This document shows, piece by piece, positions 54,945 to 62,418 of a stretch of 64,000 bases of DNA. The DNA lies in contig OZ245838.1 of the NCBI GenBank assembly GCA_965228735.1, positions 4,320,001 through 4,384,000 on the forward strand, given 5' to 3'. Origin of the DNA: Planctomycetota bacterium (GTDB taxonomy: Bacteria; Planctomycetota; UBA1135; UBA2386). The stretch's first letter is position 1, and each line of letters opens with the position of its first letter. Made by a program: the position numbers and the translations under genes. The notes under the pieces were generated by a model. That model was not told the origin of the DNA. It worked only from the letters and a program-made list of their open reading frames with translations, and did not search any database.

Positions 54945-55004
54945 GGCGGGATGCGAACCCTTCGGCGGCCGCGCCGCAAGCTACGATCCGGGTTCGTGGA
55001 GACC

Positions 55005-56423
55005 ATGATGTTGACGACCCTCGTTCTCTCGATCGCCGGCGCCGTTTCCGGGCTCGACGCGGAGCCAGCTACCACAACGATGACCGCTCCCGCCGCTGCC
55101 GCGGCCGCGGCGACGATGCCGCGCGGCGAGACCCCGCCGCCCGGCCCACCGTGGCTCCTGACCTACCGCGAAGCGCGCCGCGACGCGCTGCTGCGCGGTC
55201 GGCCGGTCATGGTCTACTTCACCAAGACCTATTGACCGCACTGCCTCCCCCTGGAGCAGCAGGTGCTGTCCAACGAGAAACTCGCCGCGCACTACGACAA
55301 GGTCACGTGGCTGTTCGTCACGCGCAACTTCAAGAACGACGCGAAGGACCGCGAGGCGGCGCGGACGCACGATCGCTTCGGCATCACGTCGTGGCCGCAC
55401 TGCGAGCTGTTCGATCCGCGCGACGATCGCGTGCTCGCGGACCTGCCGCGCGATCTCGCGGGCTTCGTCGCGGACATCGACCGGCACGCTGGCGCGGTGA
55501 AGAAGGCCGGCCGCCGGAGCGAACGAGCCGCGGCGACGGTCGCGCGGGCCACCGCGTTGTTCGAAGCCGGCAAGACGAAGGCCGCGCTGACGAGCATCGC
55601 GCCGGTCGCCAACGGGAAGGACGATGCGTTCGTCCATCTGTGGGCGCGCGAGCTCGAACGTGAGTGGCGCGGCAAACCCGTCCCGATCGCCGACCGGCTC
55701 GCCGACCCGGACGTGCGCGAGCGCGCGATCGGGCTCGAGGAGGCCTTCGAACGCGAGGCTCGCAAACTGCGCCCCCTGCAGGAACGCATCCGCGAGCTGC
55801 TGCTCGATACCGACGAACACCTCGTCGTTCGCCTGCGCGCGCTCGCGATCGTCGCGCGCGACGAACCCGAGCTCGTGCGCGATCACGCCGCGGATCTGCT
55901 CGCGATCGAGAACGACAACTTCCGCTTCCAGGTGCTGCAGACGCTCAGCAAGCACGCGGATCCCGAACTCGTTCCATTGCTCGTGATGATGTTCGAGGGT
56001 GCCGGGACGAAGGTCAGGAGCGGCAACCCCAACGTGCTCCGCATCCACATCGCGCGCTGCCTCGGCGCCGCCGGCGATCCGCGCGGCCTGCCGCCGCTGC
56101 AGTCGATCGCCGAGGCCGCGGACCCGCGCAACGGCCTCACCCACGTCGGCCTGAAGGCCCTCGGCACGCTCGGCCGCGACGGCGACCGCAAGCTGCGCGC
56201 GCAGGTCGTCGACATCCTGCGCGGGGCGTTGCCGCCGGCGATCGCGGACGCGGATCCGAGCCTCGGCGAACATGCCGAGCGCCGCTTGTTGGGCGTCGTG
56301 CGCAGCCTGCGCGAAGCGCTCGATGGCAACGTGACCGCGGTGCCACCGCTGCCTTCGGGCTGGACGAAACGCGACCGCACGGCGTTCGCCAAGGCACTCG
56401 AGCGAGCGCGCCCGCGCCGCTGA
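55005..56423 (+). CDS. Putative secreted selenoprotein: thioredoxin-like (UxxC) plus HEAT repeats, UGA at 55233-55235
   Basis: GGAG RBS then ATG 55005. The two listed ORFs share a frame and are separated by one TGA, reading VMVYFTKTY-U-PHC. Confidence 0.8.
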
Positions 56424-56428
56424 ACTGG

Positions 56429-56485
56429 CGTACGGTACCGGGTACATCCTGCCGGCACCCGGCAGTTTGAACCAGGTACCGTACG
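56429..56485. repeat. REP/REPIN-like palindromic element, copy 3
   Basis: CGTACGGTACCGGGTACATCCTGCCGG...CCGGCAGTTTGAACCAGGTACCGTACG. Confidence 0.85.
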
Positions 56486-56517
56486 GGTGCCTTGTTAGGA
56501 TCCGCGGCCCGTTTTCG

Positions 56518-58806
56518 ATGTCGATTCGCCGCGAAGGACCCGTTGCCGAGCGTCTGCTCGAGCTGTTGCAGAACCATCCGGGGGCGGATCGGGCGCGCGC
56601 CGGGGCGCTCGACGGGCCGATCGCGCCGCACGCGTCGATGACGCGACGGCAGGCCGTCGCGATCTTCGAGTCGGCGATCCAGTCGCGCCTGCAGGACCTG
56701 CTGTCGCGCGAGCTCAAGGACCGGGGCCTGAGCTACTACACGATCGGCAGCAGCGGGCACGAGGCGAACGCGATCTTCGGCGCGCTGCTGCGGCCCACGG
56801 ACACCGCGTTCTTGCACTACCGCAGCGGCGCGTTCATGGCGGCGCGACTGCGGCAGGGGCGCGGCGAGACGCCGTTCTTCGACGCGATGCTGTCGTTCTG
56901 CGCGTCGGCCGAGGATCCGATCAGCGGCGGGCGACACAAGGTGCTCGGCTCGCCGACGATGCACGTGCCGCCGCAGACGAGCACGATCGCGAGCCACCTG
57001 CCGAAGGCGCTCGGCTTCGCGATGGCGATGTCACGACTGCGGCGCCAGGGCATCGAGCCGGGCTCGGGCGTGCCGCTCGACAGCATCGTCTACTGCAGCT
57101 TCGGCGACGCGTCGCTCAACCATGCGACGGCGCAGGCCGGCCTGCACAGCGCGGGTGCTGCGGTGCTGCACGCGCAACCGTGCCCGGTGCTGTTCGTCTG
57201 CGAGGACAACGGCATCGGCATTTCGGTCAAGACGCCGGCGGACTACGTCGAGCGCATGATGCGGCACCGGCCGGGGATCAAGTACTTCGCGTGCGACAGC
57301 CAAGACTTCCCCGGCGTCTGGTCGACCGCGCAGCGCGCGATCGAGTTCGTGCGACAGCAGCGCCGACCGGCGTTCCTGCACGTGCGGACCGTTCGCCTCA
57401 TGGGGCACGCGGGCTCGGACGTCGAGGCCAACCACATGCCGCTCGAGCAGATCGAGGAGAACGAACGACGCGACCCGTTGCTCGCGTTCACCGATCTGCT
57501 GCTGACGACGGGTGCGATCAGCAAGGACGGCATCCTCGCGCTCTATCGCGATACCGACGCTCGCCTGCGCCGCGCCGCCGACGAGGCGGCGACGCGCAAG
57601 AAGCTCACGACCGTCGCGCAGATCACCGCGCCGCTGATCCGGCCGACCGCCGGTCAGTGCGAGGTGCAGGTCGCCAGCAACGAACGGCGGCTCGAGGTCT
57701 TCGGCGGCAAGCTGCCCGAGGACGACAAGCGCAAGCGCCACCTCGCCTACCGCATCCCGCAGGCGCTGACCGACATCCTCGCGGCCTACCCCGAGGCGTT
57801 CGTCTTCGGCGAGGACGTCGCGAAGAAGGGCGGCGTCTACAACGCGACCAAGGGCCTGCACGAGCGCTTCCGCGGCGGACGCGTGTTCAACACGATCCTC
57901 GACGAGACGACGATCCTCGGCCTCGCGCAGGGCATGGCGCAGGCCGGGTGCCTGCCGATCCCTGAGATCCAGTATCTCGCCTACCTACACAACGCGATCG
58001 ACCAGATCCGCGGCGAGGCCGCGTCGCTGCAGTTCTTCAGCACGGGCGCGTCGCATCGGGACATCAAGGACGCGCAGTTTCCGAGCTACGCCAACCCGAT
58101 GGTCGTGCGCATCGCCGGGCTCGCCTACCAGAAGGGCTTCGGCGGCCATTTCCACAACGACAACTCGGTCGGCGCGCTGCTCGAGATCCCCGGCATCATC
58201 CTCGGTGTGCCGGCGCGCGCCGACGACGCGGTGCTGATGCTGCGCGCGATGACGGCGGCGGCGCACGAGCACGGCATGGTCAACGTCTGCCTCGAACCGA
58301 TCGCGCTCTACATGCAGAAGGACCTGCACGAGCCGGGCGACGGGGAGTGGCAGTTCGACTACCCGGCACCCCACGAGGTCATGGACGTCGGCGAAGGTCG
58401 CGTCTACGACGAGGGCGACGACGACGCGCTGACGATCGTGACCTACGGCAACGGTCTGTGGATGAGCCTGCGCGTGCAGCGGCGACTGCGGCAGGAGGGC
58501 ATCAAGGCGCGCGTGTTCGATCTGCGCTGGCTGCTGCCGCTGCCGATCGAGCAGATCAAGGAGCACGTGCGTGCGACGAAGCGGTGCCTCGTCGTCGACG
58601 AGTGCCGCAGCACGCACGCCGGCCCGAGCCCGATGATCCTCACCGAGCTCTGCCAGGATCCCGAGCTGCGCGGCGCTGTCCTGCGCCGAGTCGCCGCGGC
58701 GGACAGCTACGTGCCGCTCGCCGCGGCCGCCAATCTCGTGCTCGTGCAAGAACCCGACATCGAGCGCGCCGCGCGCGAGATCGTCGAAGTGGAGGTCGGT
58801 CGATGA
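56518..58806 (+). CDS. Fused 2-oxoacid (branched-chain-type) dehydrogenase E1 alpha/beta, TPP-dependent
   Basis: GSSGHE, TPP motif FGDAS...EDN, GHAGSD, FGEDV, EIQYLAY, GGHFH. Confidence 0.9.
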   Translation: MSIRREGPVAERLLELLQNHPGADRARAGALDGPIAPHASMTRRQAVAIFESAIQSRLQDLLSRELKDRGLSYYTIGSSGHEANAIFGALLRPTDTAFLHYRSGAFMAARLRQGRGETPFFDAMLSFCASAEDPISGGRHKVLGSPTMHVPPQTSTIASHLPKALGFAMAMSRLRRQGIEPGSGVPLDSIVYCSFGDASLNHATAQAGLHSAGAAVLHAQPCPVLFVCEDNGIGISVKTPADYVERMMRHRPGIKYFACDSQDFPGVWSTAQRAIEFVRQQRRPAFLHVRTVRLMGHAGSDVEANHMPLEQIEENERRDPLLAFTDLLLTTGAISKDGILALYRDTDARLRRAADEAATRKKLTTVAQITAPLIRPTAGQCEVQVASNERRLEVFGGKLPEDDKRKRHLAYRIPQALTDILAAYPEAFVFGEDVAKKGGVYNATKGLHERFRGGRVFNTILDETTILGLAQGMAQAGCLPIPEIQYLAYLHNAIDQIRGEAASLQFFSTGASHRDIKDAQFPSYANPMVVRIAGLAYQKGFGGHFHNDNSVGALLEIPGIILGVPARADDAVLMLRAMTAAAHEHGMVNVCLEPIALYMQKDLHEPGDGEWQFDYPAPHEVMDVGEGRVYDEGDDDALTIVTYGNGLWMSLRVQRRLRQEGIKARVFDLRWLLPLPIEQIKEHVRATKRCLVVDECRSTHAGPSPMILTELCQDPELRGAVLRRVAAADSYVPLAAAANLVLVQEPDIERAAREIVEVEVGR

Positions 58807-59810
58807 GCCGCCCCACCGCCGTTCTGTTGTGCCCCGGTCGCGGGGCCTACACGCGCGAAGAGCTCGGCTTCCTCGGTCGCACCGTTGCACCCGGTCCGGT
58901 GCAGGACGCGCTGACCGCGAGCGACGAAGCGCGACGCGCAACGGGCCGACCACCGCTGAGCGAGATCGACGCAGCCGAGAAGTTCCGCCCCGGCCTGCAC
59001 CTCGACGGCGAGAACGCGGCCGAGCTCATCTACTTCTCGACGATGGCGCACGTCGAGCAGCTGCGCGAGCGCTACGACATCCTGGCGGTCTCCGGCAACT
59101 CGCTCGGCTGGTACACCGCGCTGCCGGCGAGCGGCGCGCTCGACCCGACCGCGGGCTGGCGACTCGTGAGCACGATGGCCGCGCTGCAGAAGGAGGTCGC
59201 GGGCGGGCAGCTGCTGACGACGGCCGTCGACGAGCAGTGGCGTCCCGACCTGAAGGCGCGTTCCACGATCCGCGAACTGCTCGTCGAACTCGACGACCGG
59301 GGACCGGAATGGGCCTGCGACTACAGCATCCACCTCGGCGGTCACATCGTGCTCGCGGGCACGGACCGCGCGATCACGGAGTTGCTCGACCGTCTGCCGA
59401 AGCACAAGGTCGGCGCGCGCGAGTTCCCGTTCCGCCTCGCGGGTCACGGCCCGTTCCATACGCAGCTCTGTCAGCCGACATCGGACGCCGCGGCCGAGCG
59501 CCTCGCGGACCTGCCGATCCAGCAGCCGCGCTGTCACCTCATCGACGGCTTCGGCAACGTGCACTCGCCGTGGTCGGCCGACCCGCGCGAGCTGCTCTAC
59601 TACACGACGCACGAGCAGGTCGTCGACACGTTCGACTTCACCGCGTGCGTGCGGACCGCGATGCGCGAGTTCCAGCCCGACGTGCTCCTGTGCGCGGGTC
59701 CGGGATCGTCACTGCGCGCGCCCGTCGGCCACTGCGTCGTCGCGGAAGGCTGGCGCGGCGTGAACGACAAGGACGCGCTCTTCGCGAGCAACCTCGTCGC
59801 CATCGACTGA
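58803..59810 (+). CDS. FabD-like ACP S-acyltransferase
   Basis: ATGA-coupled to E1; CPGRG, nucleophile motif GNSLG, GPFHT, GPG. Confidence 0.8.
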   Translation: MSRPTAVLLCPGRGAYTREELGFLGRTVAPGPVQDALTASDEARRATGRPPLSEIDAAEKFRPGLHLDGENAAELIYFSTMAHVEQLRERYDILAVSGNSLGWYTALPASGALDPTAGWRLVSTMAALQKEVAGGQLLTTAVDEQWRPDLKARSTIRELLVELDDRGPEWACDYSIHLGGHIVLAGTDRAITELLDRLPKHKVGAREFPFRLAGHGPFHTQLCQPTSDAAAERLADLPIQQPRCHLIDGFGNVHSPWSADPRELLYYTTHEQVVDTFDFTACVRTAMREFQPDVLLCAGPGSSLRAPVGHCVVAEGWRGVNDKDALFASNLVAID

Positions 59811-60735: not shown

Positions 60736-62418
60736 TCAGCGCGCCTCGACGCGCACGGCTGCCGCGACCTTGTCGGGCTCCTTGAACATGCCGTCGTAGT
60801 AGCGCACGAAGCGCTTCGCCTCTTCGGCCTCGACCTCGCGCAGCGCGTCGACCCAGACCGGCGGCACGGGCTGGTAGTAGAGCTGCGCGATCACGCGCAA
60901 CCGGCTGCGGCGCCCCTCGGGCAGCGGCAGGTCGAACTGCACCGTGTCGCTGCCGCCGACGAAGTCCGCGTCCCCGTCGATGCCGACCGGCTGCGTCTCG
61001 CCGACGTGCGGTCCGTCCGCGCGCCAGCCCCTCGGCAGCAGCCGGTTGTCCTTGAGCTTGCGCTTCATCTTCGACAGGTACGTCGTCGGCACGTCATGCT
61101 CGTCGCCGGCGACCATCTCGTAGACGACGACGTCATCCTCCGTGCGCACGGTCTGCACATGCGGGATATTGAGCTCGTCGACGATCTCCTCGAGCCGGCC
61201 GCTGTCCTCGTCGACCGCGCCCGTCTCGAACAGCAGGCGCCGTCCGTTCACCACCTGCACGTGCAGCCACGCGCGGCGCGCCGGATAGCCCGTCGGGAAC
61301 TTGTGGCCCGTGAGGTTCTCGACCGTGATCGCGAAGCGCGCGCGCCCGTCCTCGCGGCGGATCTCCGAGATCGACAGTTTCGCGGTGCGTTCGGCGAGCT
61401 GCTTGCGCGTCGCCGCGGCCATCAGCGCCAGCTTGTCCGGGTCCGCAGTGACGTCGAGCTCCTCCGCGTTCTCCGCGAGGATGTCGAGCATGAACGCGTT
61501 CCCCCCGACGAAGCCGTGACCGCGGTAGCCGTCGCGCACCGCGATGTTGAAGTCCGCGCCCATCGGGCTGCGCGCGATCCGGGCGCTGCCGAGGTCGGGC
61601 ATGTGGCACTGCTGGCACGTGCGACCTTCCGCGTTGTCACCGTCGCCCTCGTTGTTGAACACGCTGTTGCGCCACTCGAGGTAGGGCGTCTGCTCCGGGA
61701 ACGCCGTGCCGGTGTGCTCGGTGAACAGCGTGTGACACGTCGCGCACAGCGCCGAGCTGCTGACGTGCGGCGCGTGCTCCGGCGTGTAGTTCACGAGGTT
61801 CTGCATCGGCCGCACCGCGGGCTCCTCGAACGGGCCGAAGATCGCGCGCCGGTGGTTGAACTCAGGCTGGCCCGACCACGTCGACGGCTCGCCGAGTCCC
61901 GCCGGCGAGATCATGTGACACACCGTGCAGGACACGCTGTCGTCCGCGAAGATGCTGCCGACGACGTCCTTCAACCGCGGCGCGGGCTTGCCGCGTCGCA
62001 CCCGGTCGTGGTGCTCCATCGGCGTGTGGCAGCGCAGGCACAGCTCCTGGATCTGCTCCCCCGCGGCCGCGGTCTCCTTCATGATCTGGGCGCGGAAGTA
62101 GGGGTCGCGGAACGAGTTCGCCATCATCGTGCCCTGCCACGTGCCATACGGCGAGATGTCACCGCCGAGGCGGCCGGTCATCGCCGTCGCGCCGGGGGCG
62201 GGCGTGTGGCAGACCGCGCACTGTTCGGACGTCGTGAAGAAGTCGTCGCGCGCGAGCTCACCGAACGCGTCGCCGAACGGGGCGTGCGGATCCGGCGATT
62301 CGGCGCGTTCTTCGCGTAGCGCGCTCGCCGCGCCGGGTTCGACTGCCGTCGACACGGTGATCGCGCCAATGGCCAACACGGGCAACAGCCAGACGGGCAG
62401 GGTCGAAGTAGCAGTCAT
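60736..62418 (-). CDS. Secreted multiheme c-type cytochrome (5 CxxCH)
   Basis: CAVCH, CLRCH, CTVCH, CATCH, CQQCH; signal peptide; GHKFPTG motif in the C-terminal domain. Confidence 0.9.
   Translation of the reverse strand: MTATSTLPVWLLPVLAIGAITVSTAVEPGAASALREERAESPDPHAPFGDAFGELARDDFFTTSEQCAVCHTPAPGATAMTGRLGGDISPYGTWQGTMMANSFRDPYFRAQIMKETAAAGEQIQELCLRCHTPMEHHDRVRRGKPAPRLKDVVGSIFADDSVSCTVCHMISPAGLGEPSTWSGQPEFNHRRAIFGPFEEPAVRPMQNLVNYTPEHAPHVSSSALCATCHTLFTEHTGTAFPEQTPYLEWRNSVFNNEGDGDNAEGRTCQQCHMPDLGSARIARSPMGADFNIAVRDGYRGHGFVGGNAFMLDILAENAEELDVTADPDKLALMAAATRKQLAERTAKLSISEIRREDGRARFAITVENLTGHKFPTGYPARRAWLHVQVVNGRRLLFETGAVDEDSGRLEEIVDELNIPHVQTVRTEDDVVVYEMVAGDEHDVPTTYLSKMKRKLKDNRLLPRGWRADGPHVGETQPVGIDGDADFVGGSDTVQFDLPLPEGRRSRLRVIAQLYYQPVPPVWVDALREVEAEEAKRFVRYYDGMFKEPDKVAAAVRVEAR

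Follow-up and report, generated by a model that had tools for sequence, protein, structure and literature searches.

Two open reading frames (54951-55235 and 55263-56423) share one frame in the window, the 64,000-nucleotide stretch of Planctomycetota DNA analysed here, and the sole separator is the TGA at 55233-55235. The question is whether the locus encodes two products or one protein in which UGA is read as selenocysteine (Sec). The original prediction joined the frames through a TGA placed at the first Cys of a thioredoxin CxxC, and reading the frame reproduces this. From ATG 55005 or 55008 the frame is open to TGA 56421-56423, apart from the TGA in question. Translated with TGA as U it reads ...YFTKTY-U-PHCLPLEQQVLSNEKL..., with U at residue 77 counted from ATG 55005. 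Cys80 of the U-P-H-C motif is encoded at 55242-55244. The two features concerned are as follows.

55005..56423, forward strand: the whole gene, 472 amino acids with predicted Sec77, the in-frame TGA being read as U and TGA 56421-56423 being the true stop.
55233..55235, forward strand: the in-frame TGA, predicted Sec77 of U-P-H-C, at the first Cys position of the thioredoxin motif.

ATG 55005 or 55008 was preferred over the start at 54951 because GGAG at 54998-55001 reads as a Shine-Dalgarno sequence. Its spacing is better for ATG 55008 than for 55005. The start at 54951 is only 6 nt from the beginning of a divergent DNA methylase gene. A sequencing error at the TGA, in place of TGC or TGT, was ruled out. 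Contigs of 4/4 public runs, from four studies and with none flagged as a possible source, match the gene with 0 differences. In addition, JGI contig L030 agrees fully (100% identity) across residues 1-228, TGA included.

We examined the domains of the read-through product. They are listed below in order.

55005..55052, forward strand: hydrophobic N-terminus (about residues 1-16), a predicted signal peptide.
55146..55502, forward strand: thioredoxin-fold domain of Thioredoxin_7, DsbH or DsbD-gamma type, residues 48-166.
55521..56411, forward strand: alpha-solenoid of HEAT/ARM type, residues 173-469.

The N-terminus has a Kyte-Doolittle value of 1.7-2.0 over residues 1-15, lacks a basic n-region and is followed by an Ala/Thr/Pro-rich linker. 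Homologues also carry hydrophobic N-termini, ahead of a conserved PPPGPPW. Export of the protein is thus plausible, and we regard it as probable. Pfam Thioredoxin_7 (PF13899) spans the TGA with 34.1 bits, against a gathering threshold of 27 (E 3e-8), and HEAT_2 matches downstream of it (E 1.5e-6). PF13098 scores 24.6 bits on the query (threshold 27; E 3.4e-5), while some Cys relatives exceed the threshold, P0059 with 30.7 bits. An AlphaFold2 model of the read-through has pLDDT 87 and pTM 0.84, with residues 1-49 disordered (pLDDT<50). The TGA cuts within a single folded domain, the thioredoxin domain. Using VIA-align, residues 46-166 matched DsbH (2ju5; Z 12.7, rmsd 2.9, 117 aligned), a human UAS domain (2dlx; Z 12.5) and DsbD-gamma-type domains (3f9u, Z 11.4; 6dnu, 10.2; 1vrs, 9.8). 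DsbA is absent from the best 50 structure matches listed for this domain. We infer that the invariant W130-P131 sits at the cis-Pro loop position. Residues 173-469 matched armadillo, alphaRep and HEAT solenoids with Z values of about 11-12, which are modest for helical repeats. The solenoid carries a conserved SxNPNVLR motif (S339-R346) and N376. Foldseek gave no match in the PDB at E<=0.001. A PDB sequence search returned, besides designed HEAT repeats, a single thioredoxin, 2lst (E 3e-4).

The pattern of codons at homologous sites bears directly on how the TGA is read. We collapsed 49 loci to 36 distinct sites, including that of the window. TGA occupies 33 and TGC the other 3, while TAA and TAG occur at none. 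U/C-P-x-C is retained at 36/36 DNA sites, and homologues P0012 and P0015 have CPHC. The aligned read-throughs are only 35-56% identical. Both sides of the TGA are conserved and there is no second stop.

Protein databases largely miss the active site. A first homologue search gave 45 sequences. Of the 35 aligned, 33 start beyond the motif, and the other 2 have CPHC. In a profile search, 100 representatives were found at E<=1e-30. Among these, 67 begin at most 30 residues past the motif and 17 are fragments that start still later. The other 16 cover the motif region, where 13 have CxxC and 3 do not. The analysis hence corrects an annotation error for most database members of the family. Four full-length relatives (P0074, P0096, P0102 and P0142) have the same thioredoxin-like and HEAT layout with CxxC absent. 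Their sequences suggest a non-catalytic branch.

Records for the homologous loci are mostly labelled Planctomycetota, and two are labelled Gemmatimonadota. The gene is patchy; it occurs in 12 of 201 genomes of the class, the host (G000) included, and was not found in the single same-genus genome examined (90% complete). Where relatives carrying TGA were tested, selA and selB were present in 8/8 genomes and tRNA-Sec in 7/8. We also considered that Cys forms arise where the Sec machinery has been lost. This is unsupported; 3/3 Cys-form genomes keep selB, and G193 (79% complete) is the only one in which selA was not found. No conserved gene neighbourhood or operon was seen over the 35 loci compared. 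Neighbours are common to close relatives only, for example L011 and the window, or the group L022, L024, L025 and L033-L035.

The host genome (7.19 Mb, 93% complete) encodes the means to decode UGA as Sec. We detected selA (454 bits; curated cut-off 268), selB (337 bits; cut-off 242), selD (367 bits; cut-off 125) and tRNA-Sec (76.6; cut-off 47), so that all four components score above their curated cut-offs. The selD gene itself carries 1 internal TGA.

Decoding by SelB calls for a hairpin downstream of the UGA. Two mutually exclusive folds were compared.

55238..55266, forward strand: hairpin with a CCCU loop, taken as the SECIS in the original prediction and rejected as such here.
55252..55272, forward strand: predicted bacterial SECIS, an 8-bp stem with one bulge and an AGGU loop (55261-55264), 25 nt after the UGA, -10.2 kcal/mol.

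The CCCU-loop hairpin does exist, as the original prediction held; it is the minimum-energy fold of the window's own sequence alone when folded from the UGA. Its stability is no better than that of shuffled sequences (z -0.86; 38/200 shuffles as good). The further proposal, that it is a lineage-specific SECIS, did not survive comparison with homologues. For this, 29 TGA rows were reduced to an alignment of 22 by leaving out L043 and six duplicates or near-duplicates. On these 22 sites, pairing in the CCCU-loop structure was 68.6%, compared to 69.2% for shuffles. Covariation was 0.061 versus 0.075, and 468/500 shuffles were at least as high.

The AGGU-loop hairpin behaves differently on the same 22 sites. 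Pairing was 87.7% versus 70.5% in shuffles, and covariation was 0.432 versus 0.149 (0/500 shuffles for each), for a structure that was drawn by eye from the related sequences on which it was tested and that, slid by -3, reached covariation of 0.239. Cells changed on both sides numbered 21, against 7.4 in shuffles (0/500). The number of pairs showing a double change (3 versus 2.8) did not rise above shuffles (411/500). RNAalifold predicts this hairpin. It is also the minimum-energy fold when folding starts from +12 onward. By energy alone it is not significant (z -1.84 and -1.22 versus shuffles), and folding of the complete region favours the competing CCCU-loop hairpin.

The consensus bacterial SECIS, as given in the Fig. 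2A legend of PMC13188914, has G in the first two loop positions, a loop of 3-9 nt, a stem of 4-16 bp, a spacing of 16-37 nt and an energy of <= -7.5 kcal/mol. Hairpin 55252-55272 agrees with each of the four rules listed there, having a loop of 4 nt whose second position is G, along with the stem, spacing and energy given above. No difference from the consensus was found; in the host sequence a competing hairpin overlaps the element. Because the AGGU-loop hairpin covaries and fits the consensus, a lineage-specific SECIS is not needed, and the SECIS assignment is corrected accordingly. A G-loop hairpin (>=4 bp) follows 31 of the 33 TGA sites, and also 2 of the 3 TGC sites. Across the host genome, such a hairpin (<= -5 kcal/mol) was found at 25/34 domain-supported Sec sites, versus 324/1893 terminal TGAs and 481/3000 internal Cys codons, by a rule tuned on an earlier survey of the same genome; 7 of the 34 sites came via the SECIS filter, and without them the count is 18/27. 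Alone, the genome-wide filter is unspecific, passing 88/602 coding-like TGAs and 91/982 TAG decoys. Hence, candidates elsewhere in the genome were assessed by whether a domain runs across the TGA.

The features by which bacterial selenoproteins are recognised thus occur together. The UGA aligns to Cys in homologues, selA, selB, selC and selD are in the genome, and the bacterial SECIS rules hold. From these sequence data, it is very likely that the in-frame UGA is decoded as selenocysteine, and decoding looks canonical. Other readings were weighed. The TGA might be a true stop, in a pseudogene or between two genes that encode a short exported peptide and a HEAT protein with its own start at GTG 55263. 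The 67 representatives called as the downstream piece fit this, as does the patchy distribution. Such a stop would, however, have to be of one type and at one position across divergent sequences that are conserved on both flanks, with no second stop, and would cut inside one folded domain. We consider this extremely improbable. The same can be said of UGA standing for Cys or Trp, whether the codon is reassigned throughout the genome or a Cys-charged SelC-like tRNA decodes it. Cys-charged SelC-like tRNAs exist, and the Cys-form homologues show that Cys works at the site. Set against this, TGA is the main stop codon of the host, terminating 1893 of 2867 long coding-like ORFs, and SelA and SelD are intact. 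That the CCCU-loop hairpin serves as a lineage-specific SECIS is highly unlikely; although it is the preferred fold of the window sequence from the UGA, it does not covary, its loop lacks G, and an ordinary G-loop hairpin is present at most domain-supported Sec sites of this genome (25/34). Sec insertion is therefore the reading we carry forward. Domains, Sec machinery, homologous sites and database entries starting after the motif agree with the original prediction of one Sec-containing thioredoxin-HEAT protein split by gene callers. Overall, we are confident that this is one gene with a Sec-decoded UGA, encoding a predicted exported thioredoxin-fold oxidoreductase (U77-P-H-C80) with a HEAT solenoid, most likely a reductase or isomerase fed by DsbD.

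We compared the predicted protein with known selenoprotein families. Like the NF041199 Trx7/PDZ (seleno)protein (Table 1 of PMC13188914), it has an N-terminal Sec domain of Thioredoxin_7 type fused to a protein-interaction module. Unlike that family, which has CxxU and PDZ, it has UxxC and a HEAT solenoid. NF041199 is the sole NCBIfam match of the query (residues 68-110 of P0001), with 15.7 bits against a cut-off of 300, and Pfam found no PDZ domain at E<=0.1. The thioredoxin fold, UxxC and in-frame SECIS are shared with the PF13098 'Thiol:disulfide interchange protein' and PF00085 Sec-thioredoxin selenoproteins (UxxC; Table 1 of PMC13188914). The query differs in scoring below the PF13098 cut-off, in having no PF00085 match and in its ~300 extra HEAT-solenoid residues. 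DsbH (2ju5) and DsbD-gamma (3f9u, 6dnu, 1vrs) are the closest solved folds for residues 46-166. However, they rely on Cys and lack a HEAT domain, identity to 2ju5 is 15%, and a shared fold shows no function.

The family has no entry in NCBIfam or in the 2026 table of 119 families (PMC13188914), and 'HEAT' and 'Planctomyc' occur 0 times in the available portion of that source. The BSepDB survey, in the portion available, included Planctomycetota genomes and has no 'HEAT' (PMC13326102); members might stand in the database under a generic thioredoxin label. Both terms also occur 0 times in the available portions of PMC12013277 and PMC13745706. For other planctomycetes, Sec machinery and a few selenoproteins are reported in the accessible part of PMC4807772. 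A literature search, whose coverage left subscription papers largely outside, found no paper on the family. The Trx7-HEAT architecture thus appears to be absent from the selenoprotein lists compared; it would add an architecture to a known kind of selenoprotein, which is unsurprising.

What might the protein do? Three Cys-form relatives among the 100 representatives (P0063, P0095 and P0097) have a DsbD-alpha-like N-terminal region. In P0063, which is 26% identical to the query (E 5e-33), Pfam DsbD_N matches with E 0.0028, below the Pfam cut-off; in P0095 and P0097 the region was recognised by eye alone. The host has a single DsbD_TM gene, in which alpha (DsbD_N) and TM domains share a frame that continues across a TGA to a gamma domain with U-G-S-C. 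DsbH is a periplasmic reductase. These sequence features are consistent with a DsbD-fed disulfide reductase or isomerase in the cell envelope. We give this role roughly even odds, against an oxidase or scaffold, because of the CPHC motif and the relatives that lack CxxC.

A mechanism can be drawn from established thioredoxin and Dsb chemistry. A ribosome holding the UGA in its A site would cover or melt the 5' arm (+3 to +13) of the competing hairpin. The AGGU-loop SECIS could then fold, and SelB would deliver Sec-tRNA. In the exported protein, the reaction would begin with attack of the Sec77 selenolate on a substrate disulfide, and Cys80 would then resolve the intermediate. DsbD would re-reduce the oxidised Se-S form, and the HEAT solenoid may select the protein substrate.

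Alternatively, Sec is inserted but the protein is an oxidase, a handler of metal or selenium, or mainly a binding scaffold with an accessory redox centre. The HEAT motif SxNPNVLR is among the most strongly conserved parts, and P0074, P0096 and P0102 retain the architecture without CxxC. The dipeptide of C-P-H-C is that of E. coli DsbA. The fold argues the other way, being of DsbH, DsbD-gamma or UAS type with no DsbA among the best 50 matches listed, as do the DsbD-alpha-like fusions in three relatives and the invariant U/C-P-x-C. We see this alternative as possible, if somewhat doubtful.

The gene is one of many Sec candidates in its host. In a survey that was not exhaustive, the genome had 32 candidate selenoprotein genes with domain support and as many as 44 in all, the thioredoxin-HEAT gene included. 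Beside the latter, 44 TGA read-through candidates were sorted into 31 with a Pfam or NCBIfam match across the TGA (some below curated cut-offs), 12 without a family across the TGA and 1 rejected. L100 was dropped as a Sec gene, its TGA being a genuine stop that precedes an HTH gene. A Sec formate dehydrogenase was not seen, since the 5 molybdopterin-domain matches in the genome all lack an internal stop, and a search for glutathione peroxidase gave nothing. In the available part of PMC13188914, bacteria rich in selenoproteins belong for the most part to anaerobic Thermodesulfobacteriota, Synergistota and Clostridia, and the top ten BSepDB genomes have 46-63 selenoproteins in that of PMC13326102. 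Many candidates in the host have apparent export signals. With a Planctomycetota host this rich in Sec, the reason for using Sec outside the cytoplasm becomes a testable question. Tentatively, the thioredoxin-HEAT gene may be among the outputs of a selenium-based reducing chain outside the cytoplasm. Here, Sec-DsbD would feed many exported Sec proteins of thioredoxin fold with substrate-selecting modules, within a selenoproteome of about 44 genes that lacks Sec formate dehydrogenase and has about a dozen genes in families missing from the catalogues compared.

Several other candidates were recorded. L072, L077, L085, L092, L096 and L097 have apparent export signals and no Pfam or NCBIfam match, with TGA in C-U-S-N, C-T-U-G/N-N-G, Q-T-U-N-N-G or F-A-U-S-A contexts; presumably, they resemble eukaryotic selenoprotein N. 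FG-GAP repeat genes L061, L075 and L094 have U-C and a common hairpin core, CCAC[AGUUC]GUGG, and the FG-GAP/ASPIC gene L091 has C-U. The term 'FG-GAP' occurs 0 times in the available portion of PMC13188914. L057 (G000:C1:1929-2561, minus strand) is a small gene with two in-frame TGAs and a G-loop hairpin after each; it is HMA-like by eye and has no family match. L087 (G000:C1:5150211-5152226, plus strand) is a read-through frame of 672 codons that contains W-L-U-M-C and has a DsbD_N domain at its C-terminal end; no family spans its TGA. Multi-Sec genes L063, L064 and L095 comprise a U-x-x-U heavy-metal domain, tandem HMA domains with two U-G-G-C and a VPGUxxT thioredoxin-MsrA fusion, the last of which passes NF041383. 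L083 lies at G000:C1:4263182-4265605 on the minus strand.

Downstream of the gene, a palindromic REP-like repeat (56429-56489) directly follows the stop codon. It has 88 BLAST matches in the genome (E<=0.01), often as inverted pairs, and may double as a terminator. At 56467-59810, on the forward strand, lie a fused E1 alpha/beta 2-oxoacid dehydrogenase-like gene and then a weak acyltransferase-like gene; the E1 gene is also downstream of the homologue in L011. Further on, the reverse strand encodes a 560-residue multiheme cytochrome c (60736-62418), with weak matches to MtrC/MtrF-like proteins and cytochrome c3.
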